DNA of 37,200 nt from IMG/VR virus record IMGVR_UViG_2526164668_000026, one strand, 5' to 3'. The position numbers and the translations under genes were made by a program. Each line of letters opens with the position of its first letter. The first letter of the stretch is position 1. The notes beneath the pieces were generated by a model. That model had not been told where the DNA came from. It saw nothing but the letters and a program-made list of their open reading frames with translations, and did not search any database. Shown piece by piece: positions 1 through 37,200 of this stretch. This DNA is from a virus (taxonomy: Duplodnaviria > Heunggongvirae > Uroviricota > Caudoviricetes).

Positions 1-1002
1 TTACCCTCTATTGTCAAAAGGATTCAATTCAACAGCAGCCTCTAAATGACCTGGAGCAAAATGCGCATAACGCATAGTCATTTTTATATCGCTATGCCCC
101 AGTATTTTTTGCAACACAAGAATATTTCCGCCCCGCATCATAAAATGACTGGCAAACGTGTGACGTAGCACATGAGTTAATTGCCCATCAGGAAGCTCGA
201 TCTTCGCTCTCTTAATTGCAGCGTCAAAAGCCTCATAACATGGTGAAAATAGCGCTCCTCGTTTTTTGGGAAGCATAGCCTGCAATTGAGGTGAAATCGG
301 TACAGTGCGGTTCTTCTTTCCTTTAGTTTTAACAAATGTGATTCGACCGGGCAGTACTTGAGATTGCTTTAATCCTTCTGCTTCACTCCACCGAGCACCA
401 GTCGCAAGCCCAATACGGACAACAACCCCCAAATCTTTATTCCGTGACTCATCACACGCAATCAGAAGGCGTTCAATCTCATCTACATACAGAAACGCCA
501 GTTCCTTTTCTTCCTCACGAAACTTGCGAATACCAGTCAGGGGGTTTTCACCAGACCACTCCCCAAGGCGCTTCAGTTCGGCAAAAACAGCATGTAGATA
601 TGACTGCTCGCGATTAACGGTTGCTTCACTAAGTTTTTTCTTCCCCTTGGGATTCCATTCTCCTGATAGCCTTCTTTCCCGATAAGTGGCAAACATATTT
701 TTGTCAAACTGAGAAGCAAATGGATCTCCCAGCCTGGAACAAATCGCCTCAAGTTTGACTTTGCGCTCTGCACCAGAGGACAAGGTTTTACCGTACATCT
801 CAAACCAACGAGCAATCAACTCAGAAAGACGAGGACCAGAACCATCTTGAAACTCGTCTCCAACTCTACTATTCATTAAACGGCGCTCATAAGAGAGCGC
901 CTCACTTTTTGTCGCAAACTGTTTACGAATGCGTTTTCCCGATGCCCCGTAGGGATAACATTCGCAAAGCCATTTACCTGATGGAATCTTACGAACCGAC
1001 AT
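1..1002 (-). CDS. int: Phage tyrosine integrase (P2/186-like)
   Basis: 333-aa ORF with C-terminal tyrosine-recombinase catalytic region (..ATGARWSE.., ..HVLRHTFASHF.., ..LGHSDIKMTMRYAH); sits at the prophage end downstream of the repressor operon. Confidence 0.9.
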   Translation of the reverse strand: MSVRKIPSGKWLCECYPYGASGKRIRKQFATKSEALSYERRLMNSRVGDEFQDGSGPRLSELIARWFEMYGKTLSSGAERKVKLEAICSRLGDPFASQFDKNMFATYRERRLSGEWNPKGKKKLSEATVNREQSYLHAVFAELKRLGEWSGENPLTGIRKFREEEKELAFLYVDEIERLLIACDESRNKDLGVVVRIGLATGARWSEAEGLKQSQVLPGRITFVKTKGKKNRTVPISPQLQAMLPKKRGALFSPCYEAFDAAIKRAKIELPDGQLTHVLRHTFASHFMMRGGNILVLQKILGHSDIKMTMRYAHFAPGHLEAAVELNPFDNRG

Positions 1003-4982: not shown

Positions 4983-5269
4983 GCACCATCAACCACCAGA
5001 AGCTACGCGAACTGGCATTTGCCCTGCAACGAATGGCAACGCCTCAAAAATTACTGGCATTTCGCGCAATGCTCTCGCCGTCTGCTGTGCTGGCACTGCT
5101 GGATCAGCTGGAGCACGCCAGAACCACGGCTCCTGCCATTCGCCTCACGCTCCATCATGAAATCGCTGATTTCTGCGCAACGCTGGGGGCACCTGGCGAA
5201 CCGGAAACGCCGGAAGCAATGCAGCAAGAGCTGCTGCAACGCATCGATAACGTTTTTGATTTTTTCTGA
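4979..5269 (+). CDS. Hypothetical early protein
   Basis: 96-aa ORF; start overlaps the previous stop (ATGA). Confidence 0.45.
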   Translation: MSTINHQKLRELAFALQRMATPQKLLAFRAMLSPSAVLALLDQLEHARTTAPAIRLTLHHEIADFCATLGAPGEPETPEAMQQELLQRIDNVFDFF

Positions 5270-5599
5270 ACCAGTAAGAAACCAGAACATGCACACACAA
5301 AAAAACCGCTTGCCATGCCTCAATCGGTCAGGTTACATTTCCGCTGCACCTCATAAAACGGGTGCCGGGATTCTCAACCCGATACAGAGCAAAGCGCATA
5401 ACCGCGCAAGCGGTTTTTTTGTGCGTACTGTATTGCCACGTCTTTTTCGCGTCAGAATTATGGCGGGGCGTACGGGGCCGACTTCGGTCGGGCCGGATTC
5501 TTTGCTCTCCGGTGTTGAGAACCCTGTACGTCTCGCCACCCCGAGATTCTCAACTCTGGATGGTGAGTTATTTCTATCACCGAGCAAAGAGGCCACACC

Positions 5600-5830
5600 A
5601 TGGCAGACCGCAAACAGCACCGCGCTATCGCGGAGCGTCGTCACATCCAGACTGAAATCAACCACAGACTTTCCCGCGCATCACGCGTCGCGCAAATCAT
5701 GCACATCAATATGCTGCATGAGCGCAGCCACGCACTATCAAACATTTATTCCGCCTCTGTTTTCAGCTATCTGGCGGATGATCTGCACGAGCTTCAACAG
5801 CTCATCCAGCAGCAAAACAAACTCCATTAA
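5600..5830 (+). CDS. Hypothetical early protein
   Basis: 76-aa ORF with RBS-like AGAGG upstream; follows a structured non-coding region. Confidence 0.4.
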   Translation: MADRKQHRAIAERRHIQTEINHRLSRASRVAQIMHINMLHERSHALSNIYSASVFSYLADDLHELQQLIQQQNKLH

Positions 5831-9037: not shown

Positions 9038-9257
9038 TCAAAAGAAACGGAGTTTGAAAATCAAATGATAAATAAAAGAAGGATATTCACACAGAACATG
9101 TGTATCTATGAAATGCCAATAAAATTAAATTGGTATGGACCACAAACTATGTAACATAGTGGGCTTAAACAACTTCAAATAATAAAAATAAGTAAAGCCC
9201 TAAGTCCAATCATTTAAGGCTTCAATTATCTTAGTGATTAAATATGACTCACAGTTC

Positions 9258-10622
9258 TTATTTTATAGTCATATTAGCTATTGATGTGGAAATATTAAAG
9301 ATATGGTTATATTCAAACGCAAAATCACCTTCTATACGCTGAACATAACTTCCCTTTTCATTACGTAATAGTTTTAATGTTTCTTTATCGATGTAATAAT
9401 AATCCAATAGTTCTTTAAGCAATTTAATTTCCGTCTTTGATGAAAAATAATCAGATTTTATATTAAGTAATTCTAATATCTCTTCAGAAGACATTTCCTT
9501 CTTAAGTAGTCGATTTAACATATCTGGAGAAGTTACTTTCAAGAAACAAACCAATGCTAATGCAATCATATAATAATTATCATCATTATTCGCTATACAC
9601 GTATGATTATCCACTACAAGCATAGTTGAAATACATCGTTCAACTTCTCGCAGCGAGCAATTATTGGTTTCAATCAAGCATGATAAGACTCTTACAAAAG
9701 CACCATCTGTATTAATACCTAGAGAGTGATTCTGTTGTAGAGTTTTTTTAATATACGTTGTAATCGTTGTTTTGTTAGATGCTTGTAACACCATAGAGTC
9801 ATACATATTTATTTTGGGCAAAGAAAACCAATAATGAATAAATTTATTCAAGTACAGACCAGTATTGATATCACCATATTTATATGCAATTCCCTTTTCA
9901 AATTGCTCTCGATTCATTACCAATAAGAAAACCATACCTTTCACAGAAAAAAGATGCTTAATTTTTTCCAATAGCTCTAGAGAATAATCTGGGCGGGCTC
10001 GATCAAGTTCATCAATAATAATCAAGGTTTTTCTCTTTGTATTTGTATATATTTCTTCTAAAGCTTTTTTAAAGTCAGCAATTGAGTTTTTTTCCTGCTC
10101 CATGGATTTTATTTTCTCTTCAACAAAAGACTCTAACTCACTATTAATGGAATCGCTAACTGTTTTTCCTGCCTCATCAAGAGCAGAACCATTCACAACA
10201 CCTGCTGTCAGGGTTGTAATAGCTACCTTTGCACCTCCGATTAATATTTTTGCACCTATTTTCTTACCAGTTTTAATAATGCGATCAGCTACATCTTCGG
10301 CCTCTACTCCTCTGTGTTTTAGTAAATTATATAGTTCAGATGATATTGAAATAAATGGATCTGATTGATAATCATTTTCAAATGCATCGAAATAAACAAC
10401 ATCTATATATTCACTATTAGTTAATTCTAATTCTGATTTTAACATCTTAACAAATGATGTTTTACCGCTACCCCATATATCATCTAACGCAAAAACCAAA
10501 TTTGAGTCAGGAGCATTAATAATAAGCCGTATCATTTGATCATATAATGTCTTACGATTAAATATGTCAGATGTAATATCAAAACCATTCTCAAAACCAT
10601 TCTGATTAGTAGTTATATTCAT
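9258..10622 (-). CDS. KAP-family P-loop NTPase (candidate stand-alone anti-phage defence gene)
   Basis: 454-aa ORF; Walker A DDIWGSGKTSF, Walker B LIIIDELDRA, hydrophobic Gly-rich insert (IGAKILIGGAKVAITTLTAGVV) between them as in KAP NTPases; GGAG RBS 5 nt upstream of ATG; sits in a visibly AT-rich island at the position of P2 tin/old. Confidence 0.8.
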   Translation of the reverse strand: MNITTNQNGFENGFDITSDIFNRKTLYDQMIRLIINAPDSNLVFALDDIWGSGKTSFVKMLKSELELTNSEYIDVVYFDAFENDYQSDPFISISSELYNLLKHRGVEAEDVADRIIKTGKKIGAKILIGGAKVAITTLTAGVVNGSALDEAGKTVSDSINSELESFVEEKIKSMEQEKNSIADFKKALEEIYTNTKRKTLIIIDELDRARPDYSLELLEKIKHLFSVKGMVFLLVMNREQFEKGIAYKYGDINTGLYLNKFIHYWFSLPKINMYDSMVLQASNKTTITTYIKKTLQQNHSLGINTDGAFVRVLSCLIETNNCSLREVERCISTMLVVDNHTCIANNDDNYYMIALALVCFLKVTSPDMLNRLLKKEMSSEEILELLNIKSDYFSSKTEIKLLKELLDYYYIDKETLKLLRNEKGSYVQRIEGDFAFEYNHIFNISTSIANMTIK

Positions 10623-11426
10623 AGTAACTCCATTTTTTCCTTATTGAAATTAAATTAGCATTATAAACAAACACTCTCATTAAAAAAGCAAACGAATAAT
10701 AATGATTTATGATATCTTGCTATTTATCTAAAAAATTTGCAATCACAAAAAATCATATAATTAATTAAAGGTTCTTCATGCTGAAAAATAGTTATCAAAT
10801 AGTATATAGTATTGTTTTTAATTGAATGCCATAATAATTACCTTAGTCCTTTAAAACTTCCAACGATGTGGCCCCAGTTATACAGTCACATATCAAGTCC
10901 TGAAACAGTATGCACATCAAATAGGGTTATGAATCTTTTTTCATATCTTGCGATCATTAAAATCTTCTCTGCTACGAGCAAATTTACCATCCGTTCTTTA
11001 CGTAGAAAACAGCACGATACACACTGCACAATAGTGCACAAATTTGCACAATTTTTTTGAACGACTTTTTGCCCTTCCGGCCCGCGTGGCGGCTGGATCC
11101 GTCAGGGATCCGTGCGTGCACAAAAAAACGCGCTTTTTCTGCGCGCAGGTGACGGGGGAACAGCCCGCGTTTCAGGGGGTAAATAGCGTTCCCTTAACGA
11201 TGTCGCAGCGACACGACAGAATGGCCGTATTTCTCACGCTGAGCGTGAAAAATACGTGAGGGATTCTGATTTGATGGGGTGAAAGGTAAGGCCGTCAAAA
11301 TCGCACTGAGGCGGCGAGAACATGCAGTCAACGCGGTGGGATTGCGTAAGAGTCTGAACGTCGATGGTGGCGATAAACTGGAAGGCGTCGTGAAATTATC
11401 TGACTGATACAGGAGCTGGAGAGTCG

Positions 11427-22685: not shown

Positions 22686-24914
22686 ATGAGTACCACAACA
22701 CGAAAATTTAAAACCGTTATCACCGATACGGGTGCAAAAAAATTAGCTCAGGCAGCCGCGCCAGATGGTAAGCCTGTCCGCCTGACTCATATGGCCGTGG
22801 GCGACGGTGGCGGCACGTTGCCCACACCAGACAGTAAGCAGACCCGTCTGGTGCATGAGGTGTGGCGACATACTGTTAATCGCGTCATCCTGGACGCAAC
22901 ACATCAGAACCGCATTATTGCGGAGCTGGTTATTCCTCCTGAAACGGGCGGATTCTGGATCCGGGAAATTGGTGTATTTGATGAGCACGGCGATTTAATC
23001 GCGGTGGGCAATACTGCCGAAAGTTACAAACCAACCGTTGCCGAGGGGTCCGGACGTGCACAAACATTTCGCACCATTCTGACCGTATCCAGCACTGCCA
23101 CCGTGGCGCTTACCGTGGATAACACCATGGTGATGGCCACAGTGGATTACGTGGATGACAAACTGAAAGAGCATGAACAGTCACGACGTCACCCGGACGC
23201 CTCGCTGACCGCAAAAGGCTTTGTTCAACTCAGTAGCGCCACTAACAGCGTGTCTGAAACGCAGGCTGCAACGCCGAAAGCAGTAAAGGCCGCGTATGAT
23301 CTTGCTAACGGTAAATATACTGCGCAGGATGCCAGCACGACGCGAAAAGGCCTTGTCCAGCTCAGTAGCGCCACCAACAGCACGTCTGAAACGCAGGCTG
23401 CAACGCCGAAAGCAGTAAAGGCCGCGTATGACCTTGCTAACGCAAAATATACCGCTCAGGACGCTACGACGGCACAAAAAGGGATAGTCCAGCTCAGTAG
23501 TGCCACCAACAGCACGTCTGAAACACTGGCCGCGACATCGAAAGCGGTTAAGGCGGTAATGGATGAAACGAACAAGAAAGCGCCCTTAAACAGTCCTGCG
23601 TTGACCGGAACGCCAACAACGCCAACTGCGCGACAGGGAACGAATAATACCCAAATCGCAAGCACGGCTTTCGTTATGGCTGCGATTGCCGCCCTTGTAG
23701 ATTCGTCACCTGACGCACTGAATACGCTGAACGAGTTAGCGGCGGCGCTGGGAAACGACCCGAATTTTGCGACCACCATGACTAACGCGCTTGCGGGTAA
23801 GCAACCGAAAGATGCCACCCTGACGGCGCTGGCCGGGCTTGCTACTGCGGCAGACAAGTTTCCGTATTTTACGGGGAATGATGTCGCCAGCCTGGCAACC
23901 CTGACAAAAGTCGGGCGGGATATTCTTGCGAAATCGACCGTTGCCGCCGTTATCGAATACCTCGGTTTACAAGAAACGGTAAATCAGGCTTCTGGCGCAT
24001 TACAGAAAAACCAGAACGGCGCAGATATTCCAGGAAAAGATACCTTCACAAAAAATATTGGTGCATGTCGCGCTTTTCACAGTGCTATTAGTACAGGGGC
24101 AGGGAACTGGACAACGGCACAATTGATTGAATGGCTGGATTCTCAAGGGGCATTCAATCACCCATACTGGATGTGCAAATGTTCATGGTCATACGGCAAT
24201 AATAAAATTATTACCGATACTGGCTGTGGAACTATTCATCTTGCAGGTTGCGTTATTGAGGTTATGGGTAATAAAGGTGCCATGACCATCCGTGTAACAA
24301 CACCAAGCACTTCCACCGGAGGCGGCATCACTAACGCTCAATTCACTTATATTAATCATGGTGATGCTTATGCTCCTGGCTGGCGAAGAGACTACAACAC
24401 GAAAAACCAGCAGCCTGCATTTGCTTTAGGGCAAACAGGAAGCAGGGTTGCAAATGATAAAGCTGTTGGCTGGAACTGGAATAGCGGCGTTTATGATGCA
24501 GATATCAGTGGCGCATCGACATTAATCCTCCACTTTAATATGAATGCGGGGAGTTGCCCTGCTGTACAGTTCCGCGTGAATTATAAAAACGGCGGTATCT
24601 TTTATCGTTCAGCGCGTGATGGTTATGGCTTTGAAGCTAACTGGTCAGAGTTTTACACCACAACCCGCAAACCCTCTGCGGGGGATGTTGGTGCATATAC
24701 GCAGGCAGAATGTAACTCAAGGTTTATTACAGGTATTCGCCTGGGCGGTCTGTCATCTGTTCAGACATGGAATGGTCCCGGCTGGTCTGACAGGTCAGGT
24801 TATGTCGTTACAGGTTCAGTTAACGGAAACCGTGATGAATTAATTGATACAACACAGGCAAGGCCAATTCAGTATTGCATTAATGGAACGTGGTATAACG
24901 CGGGGAGTATTTAA
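22686..24914 (+). CDS. H: Tail fibre protein (P2 gpH-like); C-terminal third lies inside the invertible segment
   Basis: 742-aa ORF; three tandem ~44-aa fibre repeats; reads across the left crossover site at 23950-23975; followed by the assembly chaperone gene. Confidence 0.9.
23217..23585 (+). repeat. Three tandem ~132-bp coding repeats within H
   Basis: Units start at 23217, 23349 and 23481 (ggc[tc]ttgt[tc]ca[ag]ctcagtagcgcca...); encode [11 protein letters not shown].SET.AAT.KAVKA... Confidence 0.85.
23950..23975. promoter_or_regulatory. Left crossover site of the invertible segment (gix/cix/hix-like)
   Basis: ttatcgaatacc-tc-ggtttacaagaa is an imperfect 12-2-12 dyad and the inverted partner of the site at 27009-27034; it starts an ~85-bp inverted repeat (23950-24037 vs 26947-27034). 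Confidence 0.7.
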
Positions 24915-24916
24915 TC

Positions 24917-25450
24917 ATGATGCACTTAAAAAACATTACTGCTGGCAATCCTAAAACGAAAGAACAATACCAGCTAACAAAGCAATTTAACATCAAATGG
25001 CTTTATTCAGATGATGGAAAAAACTGGTATGAGGAACAAAAGAACTTTCAGCCTGATACGTTGAAAATGGTCTATGACCGTAACGGCGTTATTATTTGTA
25101 TTGAAAAGGATGTTTCAGCAATTAATCCAGAAGGCGCAAGCGTCGTTGAGGTTCCTGATATTACAGCAAATCGCCGGGCTGATATTTCGGGTAAATGGAT
25201 GTTCAAAGATGGCGTAGTGGTAAAGCGAACTTATACCGAGGAAGAGCAGAGGCAGCAGGCGGAAAATGAAAAGCAAAGCCTGCTACAGCTCGTCAGGGAT
25301 AAAGCCCAGCTATGGGACTCACAGCTACGGCTGGGCATCATTTCCGACGAGAATAAACAAAAATTAACCGAGTGGATGCTCTATGCGCAGAAAGTCGAAT
25401 CTACAGACACTTCCAGCCTGCCAGTAACGTTTCCCGAACAACCAGAATGA
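24917..25450 (+). CDS. G: Tail fibre assembly chaperone (P2 gpG-like), active orientation
   Basis: 177-aa ORF directly after H; N-terminus [24 protein letters not shown] nearly identical to the convergent minus-strand paralogue. Confidence 0.85.
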
Positions 25451-25477
25451 GGCAAGGCCCGCTATCGGGCCTTAATT

Positions 25478-26005
25478 TTACTCTGGTTTTTGTGGCCATT
25501 CTGGCTTTGCCGTATCCACACGGCTGACCAGAACACTGTAGCGTTCCCATGCTTCCAGTCGTGTGCGCTCCTCGTCTGTTGCCATATTCAGCCTGACAGC
25601 GCGTTCCAGCGGCTGGATGACTGATTCAGCTTCGGAAAGCAATGCGGCCTTTTGTAATTCGGCCTGTTGTTGCTGTTCGTCTGCCGTATAAATCCGTTTA
25701 ACTACAGCTCCATCCTTAAACATCCACTTACCGGAATCATCAGCGCGGCGGTTGGCTGTAATATCGGGAACCTCAACGACGCTAAAACCTTCAGGGTTAA
25801 GCGTGGAGGCATCTCTAGTGATGGCGACAATAATATTATTTGCATCGTAAACAATCTTTATTGTGTCTGGCTGAAAGTTTTTCACTTCCTCATACCAGTT
25901 TTTTTCGTCCTCGGAGTAAAGCCAGATGACTCCGTACTTCTTTGTTAACTCATACTGTTCCAGTGTTTTAGCGTTACCCGCTTTTATGTTCTTTAAGTGC
26001 ATCAT
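25478..26005 (-). CDS. Alternative tail fibre assembly chaperone (G'), in the invertible segment
   Basis: 175-aa ORF, N-terminus [24 protein letters not shown]; convergent with G. Confidence 0.8.
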
Positions 26006-26006
26006 A

Positions 26007-26984
26007 TTAAACGCTCGCTACATTATACCAAGTGCCATTTATATACTTTTGAACGGGTCTGTAATAAACGCCCGCTATATTATCGGCAGAATTGGACCCT
26101 GTATCCTGAACATTAATACCAGACAATACATGACCTGACGGGCACTGGAAATTCCATGTTTGCCAGTTGTTCACTCCATAATATTGCTGTGAACCAAGTC
26201 GAACATCTTTCACATAACGGGAATCAAAGTTACCGTAATCTGAGGGATTAACACGACCTGTAATATTTATGGTTTTATTACTTTGAATACTGCCGGAGAC
26301 AAAGCGCATAACATGGACGTTATTAGCATAAACATCCAGATACCCGTCGCCATTTTGTTTAAATCCCGTGTCATTATCACCCAAAACAATCGAGTTACCA
26401 CCAAGAGCACTGGATGTTCCGATGCCCAGTGCACCATTCAATTGACCGCCAGATAATGACAACGCCCCAACCTCAGCAGCAGTCGGTTTAATGTGCGAAC
26501 TGTAAATTACATATACAGTTCCATCTGTCAGGCCTGTTGGTTTATTCGCTGTATAAGTTGGTGATGTATGAATCGTTACGCTGGCGTTACTGGTATAATC
26601 CCACTGAATATTAACACCTGTGGCGTAATTACCTATTTCAACATAAACATCATAGGTATCACCGGATGTATTCACCCATGCAAAATTAGTAAATCCAACC
26701 GAGGTCCGTCGCCATAATGCACCAGTAATACCTTTTGGATTTCCATTTCCGGCACGCAGAACCAGCTCAGAGATGCCTGCTTGATGCGGGGAGCCAACGT
26801 TAAACCCTGCGCCACCAATCAGGCTTATGTAAACCACGGAACTGGCTTGTGGCATTGTTACAGTTGCCAGTTTGAACCATCCTGCACCACCATTAAAAGA
26901 CATGGTTGTTGAATTTGTTGCTCCAATATTGCGCAGGAATAATCTTTTATCAGGAATATCTGCGCCATTCTGGTTTTTCTGCAA
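26007..26984 (-). CDS. Alternative tail fibre C-terminal cassette (fused to H only after inversion)
   Basis: 325-aa ORF beginning [11 protein letters not shown].., the same peptide that H reads just inside the left crossover site (..[15 protein letters not shown]..); no upstream gene on its strand. Confidence 0.75.
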
Positions 26985-27008
26985 CGCACCAGAAGCCTGA
27001 TTTACCGT

Positions 27009-27034
27009 TTCCTGTAAACCGAGGTTTTAGATAA
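27009..27034. promoter_or_regulatory. Right crossover site of the invertible segment (gix-like)
   Basis: ttcctgtaaacc-ga-ggttttagataa, 12-2-12 dyad, inverted relative to the 23950-23975 site; 55 bp upstream of the invertase start. Confidence 0.75.
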
Positions 27035-27088
27035 TGGCCGTTTCTGACCTGCATGGCATGATTTACGCTTTTGGACGGGAGATTCAGC

Positions 27089-27676
27089 GTGCTGATTGGC
27101 TATGTAAGGGTATCAACAAATGACCAGAATACAGACCTGCAACGAAACGCTCTTGTTTGTGCAGGATGTGAACAAATATTTGAAGATAAATTAAGCGGGA
27201 CAAAGACAGACCGACCGGGATTAAAACGCGCTTTAAAGCGTCTTCAAAAAGGTGACACGCTGGTTGTCTGGAAACTGGATCGCCTCGGGCGAAGCATGAA
27301 ACATCTGATTTCTCTCGTCGGGGAACTACGGGAGCGAGGGATTAATTTTCGCAGTCTGACCGACAGCATAGATACATCTTCTCCAATGGGGCGTTTTTTC
27401 TTCCACGTGATGGGTGCCCTGGCTGAAATGGAACGTGAATTAATTGTTGAACGTACACTGGCCGGACTGGCAGCAGCGCGCGCACGGGGGCGCACAGGCG
27501 GACGTCGCCCGAAGCTGACAAAAGAACAGCATGAGCAAATAGCAAGGCTGATTAAAAACGGTCACGACAGAAAACAACTGGCAATAATTTACGGCATTGG
27601 TACATCGACGATTTATCGTTACCACCCCGCAGGAGAATCAAGCGGAACAATAGAGAAGAGTCAGAAAACAAAATAA
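27089..27676 (+). CDS. Serine DNA invertase (Pin/Gin/Cin/Hin family)
   Basis: Protein from GTG 27089 begins MLIGYVRVSTNDQNTDLQRNAL.. (catalytic Ser in VRVSTNDQ), C-terminal HTH (GIGTSTIYRY); beside the invertible segment. The ORF-track start 27071 is probably too early. Confidence 0.9.
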   Translation: MLIGYVRVSTNDQNTDLQRNALVCAGCEQIFEDKLSGTKTDRPGLKRALKRLQKGDTLVVWKLDRLGRSMKHLISLVGELRERGINFRSLTDSIDTSSPMGRFFFHVMGALAEMERELIVERTLAGLAAARARGRTGGRRPKLTKEQHEQIARLIKNGHDRKQLAIIYGIGTSTIYRYHPAGESSGTIEKSQKTK

Positions 27677-27678
27677 CC

Positions 27679-27706
27679 GCTAATCTGACCATTAGCGGTT
27701 TTTGTG
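27679..27706. terminator. Bidirectional terminator between the convergent invertase and gpU genes
   Basis: Hairpin ccgctaat-ctgacc-attagcgg flanked by T-runs on both strands. Confidence 0.5.
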
Positions 27707-27711
27707 TTAAA

Positions 27712-28206
27712 TCAGAACAGCCCTTTAACTGAACTGGCCGCGCTGTTAAGAGATGATGTCACCTTATCTTTGAAGCCGGACAGCATATCGCTGAACGATG
27801 AGGATTGCAGGCGCTCCCGCAAATCCTCATCACAGCGTTCAAGGGTCAGTGAAAATTCTATCTTTTTCGCCTTACCGTAGCGATCAAACTCGGAACGGGT
27901 CGTATTCGTTCCGGTCAGGACATACATGCCGTAAATCTGCCCGACACCATCAATCAGAGGCCAGGGGCGTCCTGTATATGCCTGCGTGGTCAGCAACGAA
28001 AGCGACACTTCGCCACCTGTAATTTCAGGATAAAGCACACCAGAAAGAACGATGCGATCATCGCCTGCCCCGATATACTGCCAGCTTGCTGAACGGTTAA
28101 CGCGTTCATTTTTCACATGCCGCCAGCTTTTGTTTTGCTGTAACTGCTGATGCGGCAACGTGCGCAGCTCAAAAACAAACATGCCGTAGATCATCATCAT
28201 GGCCAT
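27712..28206 (-). CDS. U: Tail protein U (P2 gpU-like)
   Basis: 164-aa ORF; MAMMMIYGMFVFELRT..VLSGVLYPEITGGEVSL.. matches the gpU pattern; directly downstream of the tape-measure gene. Confidence 0.8.
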   Translation of the reverse strand: MAMMMIYGMFVFELRTLPHQQLQQNKSWRHVKNERVNRSASWQYIGAGDDRIVLSGVLYPEITGGEVSLSLLTTQAYTGRPWPLIDGVGQIYGMYVLTGTNTTRSEFDRYGKAKKIEFSLTLERCDEDLRERLQSSSFSDMLSGFKDKVTSSLNSAASSVKGLF

Positions 28207-28212
28207 GACTCC

Positions 28213-31056
28213 TCAATCTTTATCGTAAAAACTGCCACGCCCGGCACGGGCGCGCCGTTCCATTTCTGCCCTGACCATTTCACCGACCAGTTTCGCCAGT
28301 TCGCGGGGATTCTGCGTAACAACGTTATGCAGATGAACATGAATTTCACCACCAAATCCGGAGGCAACAGGCTCCCGGTTACGGGAAGTTACAGGAACTG
28401 ATGCCACTGGAGATCGTATGGCCTCCGCCACCGGGCGGGAGCTGGCCGCAACAACAGGGACCAGCGCCGGAGGCAGCGGAGCCGGGACCACGGGGGTGAT
28501 ATTAATTGCGGGGGCAGGCTTACTGACCTGCGCAATCTTCCGCTCCTGCCACTCCCCACGAACAGCAAGTGCGCGGGGCAGGTTCTTAAAGACAATATCG
28601 CCGGGGCCAATGCGTTTTTTCGTCTCATCAACCAGCTTACCTGTGTTATCAGCAATTTTGCTGAGTCTGCGCAGCGTACCGGTATTGCTGTCTGTGAGCG
28701 GTTTATTGTCTTTGGGGTTATCACCTCCGGTGCCATTGCCATTTTCCACAGGCTTCGGCGGATTGATTTTCGCCAGGTCCCCCTGAAGCAAGGCAACCTT
28801 GTCCTGAAGAATGGCCGCACGCTGTGCGTCTTCGATTTTCTTGCGCGCCCTTTCCGCTTCATCCGGAAGGACGCCAAGTTTTTCAAGTATCCACGCCAGC
28901 GTATCCAGCAGCATTTTTGCAGGTGTCAGAACAAGCTGTAACGCACCGCCAAGAACGTTACCGAATATCTCGCCAGCACTGGTACATTTATCCAGCGTTT
29001 CCTTGCTGGACTCCATCGGTGACAGCAGCGATTTAAACCAGTTAAACACCTGGCTGATCCCGCTCCCAATTGCGTCAAAAACAGGACCAAACCGTTCAAA
29101 GGTTTCGCGCAACGGGGTCAGCCTTTCCATAATCCCGCTGAACACCCCGGCAAAAAATGCCCTGATGGGATCCCAGTATTTCCAGATAAGAACGGCAGCT
29201 CCGGCAAGCGCAGCCACGATAAGACCAACCGGACTGAACAGCGCCCCGATAGTGCCTCCCAGCAAAGAAACAGAACCCGTCACCATTCCCCACAGCGCAG
29301 GCAACACCCTGATGACATTCATTGACCGGGTAAGAATGTCGAAACCAAGACGCAAGGTGGCCAGCTTCCCGTAAAGCACCCCAATAACCAGCGACAACGA
29401 GCCAATCGTTGCAGTCATTGCCAGCAACGCACCGCCTGCTATCAGTAGCTGGCGCGTCAGTACCGGATGGGCCTGCGCCAGCGAGGTGATTTTTTCAAGC
29501 ACCCGCGTGAGCCACTGCGTGACAGAACGCAGCGGACCGTCAACCAGATCACTGATGCGAATACGAAGACCTTCCCATGCGCTGTCGAGATTTTTCAGGT
29601 CCCCATCAAGATTATCGGCCATTACTTTTGCAACGCGATCGGCCTCTCCCCTTGCCCCCTGCAATTCTCTGGTCAGTTTTTGCAGCTCTCCTGAACCAGC
29701 CGCCGCAACAAGCGTCTGCAAACCAACGAACGCCTCTTCTCCGGCGATGTCCTTGAAGAAGGAGACCTGGTCCACCTGTCCGTATTTTTGTGTCGCCTTA
29801 TAGAGATCAAGCAGCACATCCTCCATCGGGCGCATTTTGCCTCTGGCGTCAGCAACTGACACCCCCAGCTCTTTCAGCGCATCAGCCGCAGCTTTTGGCG
29901 GTGATGCAAGGCGGGACAGACTTGCGCGCATGGCCGTACCAGCATCGCTTCCACGAAGGCCATTATTGGCAAGCATCCCGGCCATGGCCGCCGCTTCTTC
30001 AAGACTGATACCAAGTTTTGCGGCAACCGGACCGGTATACTTCATGGTTTCGCCCAGCGCGCGTAAATCAGTATTGGTCCGGGTGAATGCCGCTGTCAGC
30101 GTATCGCCAACCCGGTCCATTTGATCGGCTGTCAGGTTGAACTGTGTGAGGATATTGGAGCCTATATCCGCCGTCTCGCCGAGTTCGACGCCACCTGCCA
30201 GCGCCATATTAAGAACACCGGGCAATGCGGCCTGAATGGCCTGCGGAGTAAAACCAGCCATTGCCAGAAAGCTCTGCCCACTGGCGGCATCACTCGCAGT
30301 AAACTGTGTTTCAGAGCCAAGTTTTAACGCCTGCTCACGCAGCGCCTTAAACTGCGGGCTGTTTTTGTCGATTCGCGTCAGTGCCTGAACACGGGACATC
30401 TCTTTGCCGAACCCGATCGCAGGCTGCAAAAAACGCCCGGCAGCATAGCCGCCAGCCGCTGCAGCACCAATTGCCAGCGCACCACCTGTTTTCAGTTTTC
30501 CCGCGGTTTCCTGCGCGCGCGAATACCGCTCACGCGCCCGCGTTACACGCGCAAGCGCCTGCCGTTCGCGTTCAAGCTGGTTGTTGTACTGTTCGGTGCG
30601 TCTGATGGCCTGCTGGATGGTGTTATCGCTGCCTGTCAGGGAAATGCCGTGGCGTTTCAGCTCTCCGCCAAGTTCCCGCATTTTCTGAATTTCCCGTGTG
30701 CGCGATTCATTCAGGCGTTCAAGCCGGGTGCTTAACTGCTGCATCAGCTTTTGTTGTTTTTCGCTGAGCACTGTACCCGTGCGTTGTAACTGATTAAGGG
30801 CGTTAAGCTGGCGTCGTGCTTTCACGATACCCGCATCCGCTTTACTGACAGCGTCGCGGGCGAGCTCAAATGAACGCGCCTGACGCTCGAGATTTTTGAT
30901 CGCCCCCTGCGTTCGCTGGATGGAGTCACCAAACTGCCCCATCAGGCGGCGGGCGTTTTCGGCAGGCCGGGTCAGCCTGTCAACGGCGCTGAAAGCGACC
31001 CGGATATCAAGAGTCTTCATTGTCTGCACTCCCGCTGCGAAGTGCCGCCCGCTCAC
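28213..31056 (-). CDS. T: Tail tape measure protein (P2 gpT-like)
   Basis: 947-aa ORF, coiled-coil-rich N-terminal half, Gly/Ala-rich hydrophobic central region; follows E/E'. Confidence 0.85.
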   Translation of the reverse strand: MSGRHFAAGVQTMKTLDIRVAFSAVDRLTRPAENARRLMGQFGDSIQRTQGAIKNLERQARSFELARDAVSKADAGIVKARRQLNALNQLQRTGTVLSEKQQKLMQQLSTRLERLNESRTREIQKMRELGGELKRHGISLTGSDNTIQQAIRRTEQYNNQLERERQALARVTRARERYSRAQETAGKLKTGGALAIGAAAAGGYAAGRFLQPAIGFGKEMSRVQALTRIDKNSPQFKALREQALKLGSETQFTASDAASGQSFLAMAGFTPQAIQAALPGVLNMALAGGVELGETADIGSNILTQFNLTADQMDRVGDTLTAAFTRTNTDLRALGETMKYTGPVAAKLGISLEEAAAMAGMLANNGLRGSDAGTAMRASLSRLASPPKAAADALKELGVSVADARGKMRPMEDVLLDLYKATQKYGQVDQVSFFKDIAGEEAFVGLQTLVAAAGSGELQKLTRELQGARGEADRVAKVMADNLDGDLKNLDSAWEGLRIRISDLVDGPLRSVTQWLTRVLEKITSLAQAHPVLTRQLLIAGGALLAMTATIGSLSLVIGVLYGKLATLRLGFDILTRSMNVIRVLPALWGMVTGSVSLLGGTIGALFSPVGLIVAALAGAAVLIWKYWDPIRAFFAGVFSGIMERLTPLRETFERFGPVFDAIGSGISQVFNWFKSLLSPMESSKETLDKCTSAGEIFGNVLGGALQLVLTPAKMLLDTLAWILEKLGVLPDEAERARKKIEDAQRAAILQDKVALLQGDLAKINPPKPVENGNGTGGDNPKDNKPLTDSNTGTLRRLSKIADNTGKLVDETKKRIGPGDIVFKNLPRALAVRGEWQERKIAQVSKPAPAINITPVVPAPLPPALVPVVAASSRPVAEAIRSPVASVPVTSRNREPVASGFGGEIHVHLHNVVTQNPRELAKLVGEMVRAEMERRARAGRGSFYDKD

Positions 31057-31536
31057 GCCAGCTAACCACTTCGCCGGGCGTCATCATGAAGATTTCGGCG
31101 GGCGACCAGTTAAAAATAACGGCAATATCTGCCACAAAGTCTTCTATGTGCTCAAAGCACACAACCGTGATCAGGCTTCCGTCGCCTGTTCGTTCTTCCC
31201 GCCAGAGTCCGCACCGCTCAAAAAATTTACGGCAACCACACATAACTGAATAAAGTCACAGGATGCCATTTTTTTGATCGTCACTTCATCCAGTCGCGGT
31301 GATGTCACGCGTGACAGCAGCGTAAACATGGATTCCGCTTTCAGATTCAGCACATCAGACAGCGACAAATCTCGCAGAGATCCAGCCTGCTCAATAGCTC
31401 CGGTGATCTCCACATACGTGATTTTTTCGCCGCCTCGCTCAATTGGTTGGGTAAGTTTTACGCCACGCTCACTGGTTTCTTTCACAGTGTCAGCAACGAC
31501 CGTGTTTTCGTTATCGATGTTTTTCGTCTCTTTCAT
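31007..31536 (-). CDS. E: Tail assembly chaperone E and its -1 frameshift extension E+E' (gpE ends at 31171; frameshifted product ends at 31007)
   Basis: gpE ORF 31171..31536 (AGGAG RBS); slippery heptamer T-TTT-TTG in the E frame (plus-strand caaaaaa at 31219-31225); the -1 frame continues ..NFFERCGLWREERTGDG.. to a stop at 31007. Confidence 0.8.
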
Positions 31537-31590
31537 CAGGAAACTCCTTTCAGTCAGAGGCGACGCACTGCGCCGCCTGCATATTACTTA

Positions 31591-32103
31591 TCAGCCAAGC
31601 CCAAGCGCGGAACGGATGCGATCGGGCACAATGTCCTTGCCGTCCTTCCGGTAAATGAAGTTCAGCAGGTCAATCTCCCACAACGGGCGATCGTTAACAC
31701 TCAGCTTGTAGTAGGTGTTTTTAATGGCGTAAGTGTGTGATGTGGCTTCGCCCTGTTTGGCTTCCCCCATATCAATTTCCGTCACACGTCCGCGCATTTC
31801 GACTTCATACAGGTCGCTTTCTGCATCGGTGTAGTATTCACCCGCAAAACGCAGCAGCGTGCCGTCAATCGTGCCGCCATACTTAAGGAACAGCTCACGA
31901 ACTGCGCCCCCCATGACAAAGCTCGCATCAAGCGCGGAGTCGTCCAGACCGAGATCAATACTTACCGCACCCATCATGCCGCCCCCCCGGTAGCTGTCGG
32001 TTTTGCGCGTCAGTTTGGGCAGAGTGACGGACGTCACCTTACCCACTTCGTTTTCACCATCCACAAACAGCGTAAAAAAGCGAAGATGTTTTGGCACAGC
32101 CAT
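31591..32103 (-). CDS. FII: Tail tube protein (P2 gpFII-like)
   Basis: 170-aa ORF; start overlaps the sheath stop. Confidence 0.85.
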   Translation of the reverse strand: MAVPKHLRFFTLFVDGENEVGKVTSVTLPKLTRKTDSYRGGGMMGAVSIDLGLDDSALDASFVMGGAVRELFLKYGGTIDGTLLRFAGEYYTDAESDLYEVEMRGRVTEIDMGEAKQGEATSHTYAIKNTYYKLSVNDRPLWEIDLLNFIYRKDGKDIVPDRIRSALGLG

Positions 32104-33287
32104 CAGGCACCTCCCAGCACCGCAAATGCGGGTTCAAAGTATTCATCAGTAAACGTCTGGTAAAGCTCCATGTCTTCCAGTGGCGGAACGGGCGTATATT
32201 TGTAGCGAATACGCACACGCCCCTGACGTAAATCCGTGGTGCTGTTATCCACCACGTCATACCAGCACTCCGCACCAATCAGTTTCCCGGCAGTAACCAG
32301 TGAATCCAGTTTTGCCCTGATGGCACTGATAACATCCTTCACGTTCGCAGGCGTCAGTGGACTGTCGATGGTTTCAAACTGCGCTTCCGCAATTGAATCA
32401 GCCAGCACCTGTGCGGTTCGGGTATACACCTCAAAGATGTAGGCGTTCGTTTCCGGTGTGCGGTTGCCCCAGAAGCGGAACCCGTTGCGACGAATAATGG
32501 TCGTGATTTCTTTGTTGTTGAGGCTGTTGGCATCGCTGTCTTCGGCCTGCAACGACCAGAACACATGCCTCGACATCCCCAGCACATTTTTAACCGGAAC
32601 GTTGGACAGTGATTTGTGCCACCCCTGCTCATGGTCAATGTACGCACGAAGGCCGCACGCATAGGCAGGCGCGGGGAACGTTTCGTTTTTGCCAGTTTTC
32701 GGGTTGTAGGCGATGAAGTCCGGCCATAAGAGCATCACCTCACGTTCGTTGAATTTCTGGCGGTAGGTAATCGCCTCTGCCATCGTGTTACAGCCGTGAC
32801 ATGAGGCATACACAAACGCGCGCAGTTTACCCGCAATCACGCACAGGGATTTTGTTACCGCCTCCGTGTCCAGCTCCGGCGCGGCCAGAATACGCGGACG
32901 GTATCCGATGCTTTCATCCTGCTCTGCAACAAGCAGCGCATACATCCCCGTATAGCTGCCGTCAGATTCAGAACCACCGATAACCAGTTGATCCTGCGTT
33001 TTTCCGTCTTCTTCTTTGTGTTCAGCCACGCGAACGACGATCACCTTTGTGCTCACCTGGTCTGCGATGGCCTTAAGCGCACGATAAAGCGTCCCCGTTG
33101 TCCCGCATTTTCCCAGCACGTCATTGACGCGGGTCAGCAGTGTGGGCTTGTTCAGCGGGAACAGCTTCGCGTCCGCATCATCCGCCGTTGCCACGATACC
33201 GATAACACTGGAATCAACATCGTTAATCGCTGTTACCAGGTCGGTATTTTCCGTAACACGGGCACCATGAAAACGAGTTTCACTCAT
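32103..33287 (-). CDS. FI: Contractile tail sheath protein (P2 gpFI-like)
   Basis: 394-aa ORF, first gene of the leftward FI-FII-E-T-U block. Confidence 0.85.
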   Translation of the reverse strand: MSETRFHGARVTENTDLVTAINDVDSSVIGIVATADDADAKLFPLNKPTLLTRVNDVLGKCGTTGTLYRALKAIADQVSTKVIVVRVAEHKEEDGKTQDQLVIGGSESDGSYTGMYALLVAEQDESIGYRPRILAAPELDTEAVTKSLCVIAGKLRAFVYASCHGCNTMAEAITYRQKFNEREVMLLWPDFIAYNPKTGKNETFPAPAYACGLRAYIDHEQGWHKSLSNVPVKNVLGMSRHVFWSLQAEDSDANSLNNKEITTIIRRNGFRFWGNRTPETNAYIFEVYTRTAQVLADSIAEAQFETIDSPLTPANVKDVISAIRAKLDSLVTAGKLIGAECWYDVVDNSTTDLRQGRVRIRYKYTPVPPLEDMELYQTFTDEYFEPAFAVLGGA

Positions 33288-33444
33288 AGCTTCAGCCCCT
33301 TGTATCCGTTAAATGATTCGGCAACAATCATCACCCACCACGCGCGTAATCTCACCCCTGCGCCGTTCTCCCGCCACGGCGACAACAAAAAGCAGTAACC
33401 CCCTCCGCACGCACATGCGACCATGCCGCACAGGGAGGGAACAG

Positions 33445-34554
33445 ATGACCGACACCACCATGCAATTGCTCAGTCAGGGCACAGACCCCGTGAAAATGCC
33501 GGATTTTGATATTCTCGCGGAGGGTAAAACGCTGTCAGGCGTGGCAGAGCGCCTGATGAGCCTGTCACTGACCGACAACCGGGGATTTGAAGCGGACCAG
33601 CTCACCATCACGCTGGATGATGCGGATGGTCAGTTGCAGCTACCGCCACGGGGCGCGCGCCTGACGGTTCTCATTGGCTGGAAAGGAGAACCGCTGACAG
33701 AAAAAGGCACTTACATTGTTGATGAAATCGCTCACGAAGGACCGCCGGACAGGCTGACTGTTTCAGCCAGAAGCGCAGATTTCCGGGATGAATTTAACGT
33801 TAAACGTGAGGTGTCCTGGCATGATGTGACCGTTGAGCGTGTGGTATCCGCCATCGCTCATCGGTATGGTCTGAAACCGCAAATCAGCGAAATGCTGATG
33901 GATATCGAAATCGACCACGCCGACCAGACCGAAGAAAGCGACATGTCCTTCCTTACGCGCATGGCGGAAATGCTGGGCGCAATCACCACGGTAAAAAGCG
34001 GTAATCTGTTATTCATCATGCCCGGCGGTGGCGTGAACGCACAGGGCCAGCCGTTGCCATCGTTCGCCATCACACGCAGTAGCGGCGATCGCCATCAGTT
34101 CCGCATTGCTGACCGCGAGGCGTATACGGGGGTACGCGCTTACTGGCTTGATCTTAATTACGGGAAAAAGAAAAAAGTCAGCGTGAAACGCCGCAAACCG
34201 CCACAACCGAAAAAAGAGAAAAGCAGCAGCCGTGAAGGTGATTATATGGAAGGCGCGGAAGGCAATGTGTTTGTGTTACGCAAGACTTATCAGAACGAGC
34301 AGGCAGCAAGACGCGCAGCGGCGGCAAAGTGGCAACAACTACAACGCGGAGCCGCATCATTCTCCATCACGCTGGCACGTGGACGAGCAGAACTCTACCC
34401 CGAAATGCATGGCACGGTAACAGGATTTAAAAGCGAGATTGATAATCAGGACTGGATTATTGCAAAAGCCGAGCACACCATTGATAACAGCGGCTTTACC
34501 ACGCAGCTTGAGCTTGAGGCAAAAATCCCGGAATGGATAGCGGAAACAGAGTGA
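33445..34554 (+). CDS. D: Late control/tail protein D (P2 gpD-like)
   Basis: Start chosen at ATG 33445 (GGGAGGGA RBS; MTDTTMQLLSQG..); the ORF-track start 33313 gives an unlikely N-terminal extension. Confidence 0.8.
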   Translation: MTDTTMQLLSQGTDPVKMPDFDILAEGKTLSGVAERLMSLSLTDNRGFEADQLTITLDDADGQLQLPPRGARLTVLIGWKGEPLTEKGTYIVDEIAHEGPPDRLTVSARSADFRDEFNVKREVSWHDVTVERVVSAIAHRYGLKPQISEMLMDIEIDHADQTEESDMSFLTRMAEMLGAITTVKSGNLLFIMPGGGVNAQGQPLPSFAITRSSGDRHQFRIADREAYTGVRAYWLDLNYGKKKKVSVKRRKPPQPKKEKSSSREGDYMEGAEGNVFVLRKTYQNEQAARRAAAAKWQQLQRGAASFSITLARGRAELYPEMHGTVTGFKSEIDNQDWIIAKAEHTIDNSGFTTQLELEAKIPEWIAETE

Positions 34555-35658: not shown

Positions 35659-36131
35659 ACCGATACACTCTATTACTAACCAATCATAGCCCACATCATA
35701 AAATCGAGATGAGGAGTACAACACCTTTAACAAGAAGGTGCCATCACGATAATATGCCGTGCAATTCATCAAAAAAAAGATCTATATCAAAGAGATAGAG
35801 TTATTATCAGTGCTGCAGACATCAGCATTCGAGGCAGCAGAAAGACAGTAAATCTAACGAATTTGTCTTTTTCTCAGGATGTTGTCAGATTAAAAAAGAT
35901 AGAGTAGCGCAGACACCTTTTGGTGGATGGTAGGAGGAAAAATGAAGTTGAGTGGGAAGATCCCAGAAAAAACTTTGGTTTAACCAAGGCCCTAGTTCAA
36001 TATGCGAAATGCAGATGAGTTGCAGGAGAGTTTTGCTTCACCCTTAGAGTTTAAACAGACGTGTACTATCATTATTTCTGCATATCGCCACACCATCGCC
36101 ACTTTACCGCCATTTAACAAAATACAAATAC

Positions 36132-36197: not shown

Positions 36198-36284
36198 TGG
36201 TACCCGGAGCGGGACTTGAACCCGCACAGCGCGAACGCCGAGGGATTTTAAATCCCTTGTGTCTACCGATTCCACCATCCGGGC
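36198..36284 (-). tRNA. leuZ: tRNA-Leu (anticodon UAA)
   Basis: Reverse complement gives GCCCGGATGGTGGAATCGGTAGACACAAGGGATTTAAAATCCC...CCGGGTACCA, 87 nt with CCA end. Confidence 0.9.
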
Positions 36285-36296
36285 TCGGGAAGAAAG

Positions 36297-36370
36297 TGGA
36301 GGCGCGTTCCGGAGTCGAACCGGACTAGACGGATTTGCAATCCGCTACATAACCGCTTTGTTAACGCGCC
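36297..36370 (-). tRNA. cysT: tRNA-Cys (anticodon GCA)
   Basis: Reverse complement gives GGCGCGTTAACAAAGCGGTTATGTAGCGGATTGCAAATCCGTC...CGCGCCTCCA, 74 nt. Confidence 0.9.
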
Positions 36371-36424
36371 AAATTCTTCAGGCCTTTCAGCCAGACATCC
36401 GCTTGACGCCGATGTCTTTTAAAC

Positions 36425-36500
<76 letters not shown>

Positions 36501-36651: not shown

Positions 36652-37200
36652 TCACTGATCAAGCAAATCTGCACGCGCAGCGCTCAAATATTGCAACATT
36701 GACCACAGAGTCAGTACCGCAGCCACAAAGAAAAGTGCAATACCGGCGTACTCAACCCAAATGTTCGGACGCCACAGCAGCCAGGCCAACGCCACCATCT
36801 GGGCAGTGGTTTTCACTTTCCCAATCCAGGAGACAGCCACGCTACTGCGTTTACCCAACTCCGCCATCCATTCGCGTAGCGCAGAAATAATAATTTCACG
36901 GGCGATCATCGTTGCCGCCGGTAGGGTCACCCACCAGCTGTGATAATGCTCGGTTACCAGCACCATGGCGATAGCCACGAGAACTTTATCTGCTACAGGG
37001 TCAAGGAAAGCACCAAACCGGGTACTCTGGTTCCAGCGGCGTGCCAGAAAACCATCGAACCAGTCAGTCACCGCCGCGACGCAGAAAATGAGCGCGGCGG
37101 CAAACGGCGACCAGGTGACAGGCAGATAAAAGACCAATACAAAGAATGGGATAAGGATGACACGGAACAGTGTAAGCAACGTAGGGATATTAAATTGCAT
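36652..37200 (-). CDS. pgsA: CDP-diacylglycerol--glycerol-3-phosphate 3-phosphatidyltransferase
   Basis: 182-aa [31 protein letters not shown].. recognised as enterobacterial PgsA; upstream of glyW-cysT-leuZ as in E. coli; start codon at the window edge. Confidence 0.9.

Follow-up and report, generated by a model that had tools for sequence, protein, structure and literature searches.

Introduction

In bacteriophage Mu, the constant part of a tail-fibre gene is followed by one fibre tip with its chaperone, then by an alternative chaperone and tip, and finally by the gene of the serine invertase Gin, which acts on the G segment between the constant part and its own gene. The C segment of phages P1 and P7, served by the invertase Cin, resembles it in organization and in the families of its cassettes, and the Pin region of e14 and the Hin system belong to the same family of DNA inversion systems. 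Canonical P2 (Peduovirus), by contrast, has a single fixed tip, no invertase and a small open reading frame (ORF) after the chaperone gene G (NC_070906.1). Within the P2 family, the loci of enteropathogenic Escherichia coli (EPEC) E2348/69 and the Fin invertase of the Salmonella prophage Fels-2 come close to the locus studied here by description, since both concern P2-family prophages in which a Hin-family invertase flips the C-terminus of the fibre. For two P2-like prophages of EPEC E2348/69, both orientations of the invertible fibre loci were found to coexist in clonal cultures (Goldberg et al., 2014; PMC4272514). The evidence in that strain was whole-genome sequencing, and confirmation by polymerase chain reaction was explicit for e14 and for the four-variant loci (PMC4272514).

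Here we describe a locus of this kind in a stretch of tailed-phage DNA of 37,200 nucleotides (nt), IMG/VR record IMGVR_UViG_2526164668_000026, which is called the window below. Judged by its sequence, the module that follows the constant part of the tail-fibre gene H is a member of the Gin/Cin/Pin/Hin family and, more specifically, of the invertible tail-fibre modules. It is very probably a two-state inversion switch of the Gin type for host range, carried by an apparently intact P88-like prophage of E. coli. An earlier reading of the letters alone (hereafter the original prediction) had likened the architecture to the Mu G segment, the P1 C segment and e14 Pin; each of its sequence statements was borne out on checking, and the sites, the serine invertase, a predicted enhancer and an in-frame swap of fibre ends were all found to be present. 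The switch is real but ordinary, because its mechanism has been known since phage Mu and it is already annotated in close relatives.

Results

The invertible segment is bounded by two gix-like recombination sites. The left site (23950-23975, plus strand) reads TTATCGAATACC-TC-GGTTTACAAGAA, with its 2-bp core at 23962-23963, and the right site (27009-27034, minus strand) reads TTCCTGTAAACC-GA-GGTTTTAGATAA on the plus strand and TTATCTAAAACC-TC-GGTTTACAGGAA in reverse complement, with its core at 27021-27022; these positions and letters reproduced those of the original prediction. Both are 26 bp long, lie in inverted orientation and consist of two 12-bp half-sites around an identical 2-bp core, as is typical of the family. 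The original prediction had also proposed an alignment with known crossover sites, and a match was found: against Mu gix (TTATCCAAAACCTCGGTTTACAGGAA, taken from the Mu record), the left site was identical at 23/26 positions and the right site at 25/26, and the TC core was common to the left site, the right site and Mu gix when each was read in its own orientation. The left site, with 3/26 positions different from Mu gix, is slightly asymmetric. P1 cix differs from the sites of the window in having a TT/AA core and a different outer half-site.

The two sites head an inverted repeat, which had been put at about 85 bp and which we measured at 93 nt, with a left arm at 23946-24038 that is 88% complementary to the right arm at 26946-27038. 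The longest perfect run in this repeat is 23 nt, and the corresponding repeat of Mu is 34 nt long. The left arm encodes the 23 amino acids (aa; 427-449) that are common to both forms of the fibre. With a degenerate pattern derived from the two sites and up to 3 mismatches allowed, a search over the 37.2-kb window returned 2 matches, both of them the known sites, and none was obtained in 100 dinucleotide-preserving shuffles. A scan for the core motif gave, beyond the two sites, a single match with 1 mismatch at 35969, outside the module. No third recombination site was found in the window either by the degenerate pattern (≤3 mismatches) or by the scan for core and dyad motifs, and from these results the window has two sites rather than three or more. 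We also considered a shufflon-like multi-site fibre switch and rejected it because only two full sites are present in the window. The p15B Min system and the three-repeat locus of EPEC E2348/69, unlike the locus described here, have at least three sites and more than two arrangements, the EPEC locus being shufflon-like with four states.

The tail-fibre gene H is an ORF of 742 aa with a tail-collar domain at its N-terminus (Pfam Phage_tail_fib, 1.4e-53) and with Phage_fiber_2 repeats (6.9e-61). Its constant part (codons 1-425; 22686-23961, plus strand) is common to both states of the switch and contains three tandem repeats of 132 nt (44 aa) at 23213-23608, which correspond to the Phage_fiber_2 repeats and of which the later copies are 86% and 61% identical to the first. 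The P1 record likewise has, in the fibre gene S, an annotated 132-bp 'repeated element a1'. Fused to the constant part at present is the expressed variable cassette Hv (23964-24914, plus strand; 316 aa) of the Mu S'/P1 S' type, which shares 89% identity with Mu S' and 95% with P1 S'v, against only 27% with Mu S. It is predicted to be co-transcribed with the tail-fibre assembly chaperone gene G (24917-25450, plus strand; 177 aa; Pfam Caudo_TAP, 1.5e-36), whose product is of the Mu U' type (97% identity to Mu U' and 94% to P1 U'). A G+C-rich hairpin (25454-25473, plus strand) occupies the middle of the segment, between the convergent chaperone genes G and G'; it resembles a terminator as a pattern match only, with 8 pairs, 6 of them G-C, followed by AATTTTACTC.

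The minus strand carries the alternative set. The silent chaperone gene G' (25478-26005; 175 aa; Pfam Caudo_TAP, 2.8e-37) is of the Mu U/P1 U type (89% identity to Mu U and 91% to P1 U), and inversion would bring it to expression. The silent variable cassette H'v (26007-27020) encodes 337 aa from the core, has no start codon of its own and contains no stop codons or frameshifts. This content, namely the C-terminus of H with the 177-aa chaperone on the plus strand and the 175-aa chaperone with a tip ORF of 325 aa on the minus strand, agreed with what had been read from the letters, as did a shared peptide of 11 residues just inside both sites. The 'MQKNQ...' start at which the minus-strand ORF had been called at 325 aa is a TTG, and this 'M' was merely picked in ORF calling, since the reading frame continues without a stop as far as the site.

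The two tips are 37% identical to each other and are not the Mu S/S' pair, Hv being of the Mu S' type and H'v of a type with a P2 gpH end. H'v is only about 34% identical to Mu S and P1 Sv. Over its whole length it shares 85% identity with the fibre tip of Mu-like Yersinia (pestis) phages. Its last 166 aa (residues 172-337) are about 83% identical to the C-terminus of P2 gpH; the P2 match is confined to this part, and the silent tip is itself a hybrid. By the type of tip now joined to H, the prophage is in a state that resembles G(-) of Mu (S'/U' type). As DNA, the segment shares about 88-94% identity with the corresponding segments of Mu (G), P1 (C), P7, D108 and SfMu. It is more AT-rich than the constant part of H, as had been suspected, with a GC content of 44.6% (45.5% for Hv) versus 54.6% for constant H and 58.2% for the baseplate genes.

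We then inverted the segment in silico by reverse-complementing the DNA between the two cores; the choice of side at the 2-bp core made no difference to the product. In H, the core of the crossover lies in codon 426, and the product was an open, in-frame fibre gene H' of 763 aa (H, 742 aa) followed directly by G' (175 aa), in line with the claim that inversion would swap the fibre tip in frame. H and H' are identical to aa 449 and first differ at residue 450. The 3' part of the fibre gene is exchanged in frame and each tip comes with its own Caudo_TAP chaperone, which is the arrangement of invertible fibre modules.

Both orientations of the segment occur among relatives of this prophage. The junction as found in the window was present in 126 complete E. 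coli genomes, and the junction predicted by the in-silico inversion was present in 19 (about 95% identity), where it is annotated as part of one continuous tail-fibre gene. When 5-kb queries in each orientation were used with at least 80% coverage on one strand, 48 complete E. coli genomes matched the arrangement of the window and 53 the opposite one. E. coli VCSW5 carries the same type of prophage with colinear flanks, in which 23946-27038 of the window aligns on the minus strand with 92% identity over 3,103 nt. Its annotated fibre is 763 aa long, equal to the predicted H', so that this strain presents the opposite orientation of the same pair of cassettes.

The strongest support for inversion in homologous prophages comes from the genome sequences of two near-clonal pairs, which we regard as decisive. 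E. coli 95JB1 and 95NR1 (Adelaide isolates) and O145 strains RM9467-C1 and RM9872 carry, within each pair, the homologous prophage at the same chromosomal position, and the two chaperone genes are swapped in place and strand between the members. In both pairs, an in-silico inversion at the 2-bp cores converted one member into the other with 0 mismatches over 11,124 nt. These prophages have the same outer half-sites as the window and an invertase that shares 92% identity with the one described here.

A serine DNA invertase gene of 195 aa (27089-27676, plus strand) lies directly outside the right site, where the original prediction had placed it; its start is not the TTG at 27071 but a GTG at 27089 (MLIGYVRVST...), 54 nt outside the site, as annotated in the RefSeq relatives examined. 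The protein has the Pfam domains of a small serine recombinase, Resolvase (1.3e-50; aa 3-135) and HTH_7 (9.2e-14; aa 138-181), and matched the Gin structures 4M6F and 3UJ3 in PDB with E values of about 1e-100 and the Hin DNA-binding domain 1HCR with 5e-12. The alignment with known invertases that had been proposed as a check gave 82% identity to Mu Gin and 73% to P1 Cin, besides 93% to the invertase of phage 503458. The enzyme is full length, and the residues of its catalytic domain are all as in Gin except for one K/R change. Ser9 (MLIGYVRVS9T) and Met114 (ALAEM114ERE) are kept in the alignment; Ser9 is the nucleophile of Gin, and the M114V substitution makes Gin independent of Fis (PMC3575834). 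The gene itself is a mosaic, with nucleotides 1-360 being 90-100% identical to gin and its first 113 nt, the enhancer stretch included, 99% identical. After this part it departs from gin, and the C-terminus, which carries the helix-turn-helix domain, is of the P88 type and 100% identical to that of the P88 invertase. This C-terminal DNA-binding part also resembles Hin-type helices (GIGTSTIYRY).

An enhancer had been expected within the 5' end of the invertase gene, and a recombinational enhancer is predicted there at 27107-27178 (plus strand). We located it by the P1 record, in which the Cin enhancer is annotated at +19 to +90 of cin. The stretch is identical to Mu gin at 72/72 positions and to the annotated P1 enhancer at 55/72. 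Matches to the degenerate Fis consensus were found at 27111-27125 and 27159-27173, 48 nt apart, and the window, gin and cin all have them at gene positions 23 and 71. A spacing of 48 bp between Fis sites is that of the Hin, Gin and Cin enhancers. By these features the locus would have a cis-acting enhancer with two predicted Fis sites inside the 5' end of its invertase gene, like the other members of the family. Downstream of the gene, a terminator-like hairpin that could act in both directions (27675-27700; a 10-pair stem with T-runs on both strands, which is also an inverted repeat) lies between the convergent invertase and gpU genes.

The element that carries the module is, by gene order and sequence identity, a P88-like prophage of E. 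coli (Peduoviridae, genus Xuanwuvirus). The designation 'P2-like prophage' in the original prediction holds for the P2 family; it does not hold for P2 proper, from which the element differs in being P88-like, with the FI-to-U block inverted and an invertase module after G. Phage 520873 covers 85% of the first 22 kb of the window at 95.7% identity and P88 covers 75% at 96.2%, and phages P88, 503458, 520873, P884B11 and Citrobacter phiSM as a group share the genome layout and are 95-96% identical to the window over 66-85% of this part. The gene order is that of P88-like genomes, namely V, W, J, I, H, G, G', H', DNA invertase, the gpU block on the minus strand and D. The order H-G-G'-H'-invertase-gpU(-) is annotated in these phages as well, with an invertase 92-99.5% identical to that of the window. 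By this comparison, an inversion switch is the norm in the genus Xuanwuvirus. The members differ in the content of their cassettes, with different tips at 23976-24415 and/or 26067-26995 in 503458, 520873 and GPT24-02. We considered a remnant of Mu or P1 as the origin of the module and rejected it, since the flanks are P88-like on both sides.

Thirty-six nucleotides after the invertase gene begins the tail module of gpU, tape measure, E, tube and sheath (27712-33287, minus strand), which is on the strand opposite to that of canonical P2, and gpD (33313-34554, plus strand) keeps the P2 orientation. The start codons of the sheath gene and D are divergent and 25 nt apart. In the relatives, the minus-strand block after the invertase has the same order of gpU, tape measure, E, tube and sheath (U-T-E-FII-FI), and because P88-like phages and E. 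coli prophages have this layout, the inverted tail module is a trait of the genus. The prophage appears to be complete, with open genes for integrase, replication, portal, terminase, capsid, lysis, baseplate, sheath, tube, tape measure and D. The integrase gene (1-1002, minus strand) lies at the left edge of the window, and the host genes for transfer RNAs (tRNA-Leu(taa), tRNA-Cys and tRNA-Gly) and pgsA lie at the right edge (36198-36500 and 36652-37200, minus strand). These place the prophage beside the leuZ-cysT-glyW cluster, and the right flank (tRNA-Leu/Cys/Gly, pgsA) is 100% identical to many E. coli chromosomes.

We surveyed 79 invertase loci from species-representative genomes; their contexts were heterogeneous, and the noise of a site scan in which up to 6 mismatches were allowed was too high for sites to be counted. 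In several Enterobacterales, both P2-order prophages (H upstream, and gpU on the same strand about 5 kb downstream) and P88-order prophages (gpU convergent, just after the invertase) were present. At about 23 of the 79 loci with a related invertase, the contig breaks off 65-210 nt before the invertase gene begins, where the inverted repeat lies, and draft assemblies seem to break systematically at such invertible segments.

Two other regions of the window drew attention. A KAP-family P-loop NTPase of 454 aa is encoded at 9258-10622 on the minus strand (Pfam, 1.8e-38), and it matched the PADLOC candidate defence family PDC-S20 with E = 8e-76. Its gene lies within a window-specific stretch (9051-11024), with a replication gene on one side and the portal gene on the other; in 520873 and P88 this place is taken by ParM and partition genes. 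It looks like a swap at a cargo or defence hotspot. In the early region, Rfam models scored above their gathering thresholds for the Hfq-binding small RNA isrK (5346-5420, plus strand; 63 bits) and for a C4 antisense RNA (5456-5543, plus strand; 78.5 bits). These two matches adjoin each other inside 4988-5787, a stretch that does not align to 520873, and the pair may be an antisense immunity element of the P1/P7 type.

Discussion

From what is established for Gin, Hin and Cin, a mechanism can be proposed for this locus. Invertase dimers would bind the two inverted 26-bp gix-like sites while host Fis would bind two sites 48 bp apart in the enhancer within the first ~90 bp of the invertase gene, and the sites and enhancer would assemble into an invertasome on supercoiled DNA. 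Ser9 would then cut both strands of the TC cores with a 2-bp stagger, after which the rotation of one subunit pair by 180 degrees would be followed by rejoining of the ends. By this reaction the 3.06-kb segment (23964-27020) would flip, and the last ~40% of the tail fibre would be swapped together with the chaperone. Late transcription from the V-W-J-I-H operon would read constant H (aa 1-426) fused to one of the two tips, which would be Hv with G in the present state (state 1, the 'G(-)' type with Mu S'/U') and H'v with G' in the other (state 2, with the P2 gpH-like distal end). Each induced virion would then display one or the other receptor-binding tip, giving two adsorption types in the progeny. 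Given the intact parts, we expect the segment to flip in this particular strain. The dependence of the switch on Fis is presumed by analogy with the known systems, and so are the change of host range and the hosts that each tip would recognise.

Several points weigh against the reading of the locus as a working host-range switch. The receptor specificities are taken from knowledge of Mu, P1 and P2. The C-terminal DNA-binding domain of the invertase is unlike that of Gin (about 50% DNA identity beyond nucleotide 360), and its recognition of these sites is therefore inferred from the flipped P88-type relatives. A simple consensus scan of the interval from the right site to the start of the invertase gene (27035-27088) gave no sigma-70-like promoter, and expression of the invertase is accordingly presumed. 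In the near-clonal pairs, the arms of the repeat show no difference over about 70 nt around the core; this brackets the crossover to about 73 nt but does not pin it to the core, and homologous recombination could in principle account for it there.

Some of these points would fit a switch that has frozen, in which the module is intact by inheritance and no longer flips in this lysogen, with the fibre fixed as the S' type either because the invertase is not expressed or because its diverged DNA-binding domain is mismatched to the asymmetric left site. The missing promoter-like match, the 3/26 deviations of the left site from Mu gix and the divergence of the C-terminal domain from Gin all point that way. 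We nevertheless give this reading only a small chance, because the invertase is full length with a catalytic domain as in Gin apart from one K/R change, the outer half-sites equal those of the flipped 95JB1/95NR1 and O145 prophages, the enhancer stretch matches Mu throughout, and the silent cassette is free of stops and frameshifts. The inversions seen in the relatives might also have arisen by RecA-dependent homologous recombination between the ~90-nt inverted repeats, the invertase being incidental, and the width of the interval of identical repeat sequence in which the clonal-pair crossovers can be placed speaks for this explanation. However, a repeat whose longest perfect run in the window is 23 nt is a poor substrate for homologous recombination, and the conserved 26-bp sites, their shared core, the adjacent invertase and the enhancer would be left unexplained. 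Furthermore, the two orientations are about equally frequent (48 versus 53) and two independent clonal lineages have flipped, which suggests a programmed event of high rate; an origin by RecA is accordingly very improbable in our view.

It can also be asked whether the module benefits the host above all, for instance through action in trans on the invertible segments of other resident prophages, rather than the host range of a viable phage. Invertases of the Gin family cross-complement, Kutsukake (cited in PMC4272514) reportedly found in 2006 that Fin of Fels-2 acts on hix in Salmonella, and there are E. coli genomes with up to 17 places similar to this region, all of which would suit such a role. 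Against it, the prophage looks complete, and any action in trans would add to the fibre switch in cis and not replace it. Its close relatives P88 and phiSM are, moreover, inducible and active temperate phages (PMC6456863). We find a mainly host-serving module scarcely credible, and the two-state switch for host range remains by far the preferred reading.

As a member of the family, the locus shares with Mu the order of constant fibre part, tip-chaperone, chaperone'-tip' and invertase, the type of site with its TC core, the S'/U' pair (89-97% identity for Hv and G) and a U-like second chaperone (89%). It differs from Mu, a transposable phage, in belonging to a P2-family myovirus and in having a longer inverted repeat, a second tip that is not Mu S (34%) and ends like P2 gpH, an invertase with a DNA-binding domain of another (P88) type, and gpU as the neighbour of the invertase gene in place of com/mom. 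The likeness to P1 extends from the organization and the cassettes (95% for Hv to S'v, 94% for G to U' and 91% for G' to U) to the enhancer inside the invertase gene with Fis-consensus matches at the same gene positions; in P1, however, cin is on the other side of the segment, which is 4.2 kb long, and Cin is 73% identical to the invertase of the window. With canonical P2 the prophage has in common the baseplate and fibre order V-W-J-I-H-G and, in the last 166 aa of the silent tip, an end about 83% identical to that of gpH. It departs from P2 in that the genes of P2, in the order H-G-(Z/fun)-FI-FII-E-T-U-D, are all on the strand of H, whereas the FI-to-U block of the window is on the opposite strand. 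The statement in the original prediction that canonical P2 has no such switch was confirmed by the P2 record NC_070906.1, which has no invertase after G.

The differences from Mu, namely the 93-nt repeat, the P2-type second tip, the P88-type invertase domain and the gpU neighbour, are variations of a modular exchange that has long been described. Haggard-Ljungquist and colleagues (cited in PMC13100340) are said to have reported modular exchange among such fibres in 1992. The combination of a Mu G(-)-type tip with a P2-type tip may represent a host-range combination that is not yet characterised. We also considered the idea that the inverted U-T-E-FII-FI module is the relic of a large inversion that this invertase carried out with a secondary site and that became fixed in the ancestor of the P88-like genus. 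A gix-like site at the FI/D boundary, sought as a trace of such an event, was not found, and we think the idea unlikely. If it were true, the late operons of an entire phage genus would owe their architecture to a host-range invertase.

Conclusion

The locus adds no new principle, since the mechanism has been textbook knowledge since Mu, P1 and Hin, and it is already documented that such switches are present and active in E. coli prophages of the P2 family. Several RefSeq phages and dozens of E. coli genomes carry annotations of this arrangement, with 92-99% identity, and the papers on P88 and on P2-like diversity make no mention of an invertase or of inversion. In RefSeq relatives, the silent cassettes are flagged by PGAP as pseudogenes ('missing N-terminus'); the invertible layout explains these automated calls of a truncated pseudogene as an annotation artefact, and the orientation in which the segment happens to be assembled is arbitrary. 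While the practical value is limited, phage induced from this lysogen is predicted to be a mixture of two adsorption types, which would be relevant to typing, phage therapy and tailocin engineering.

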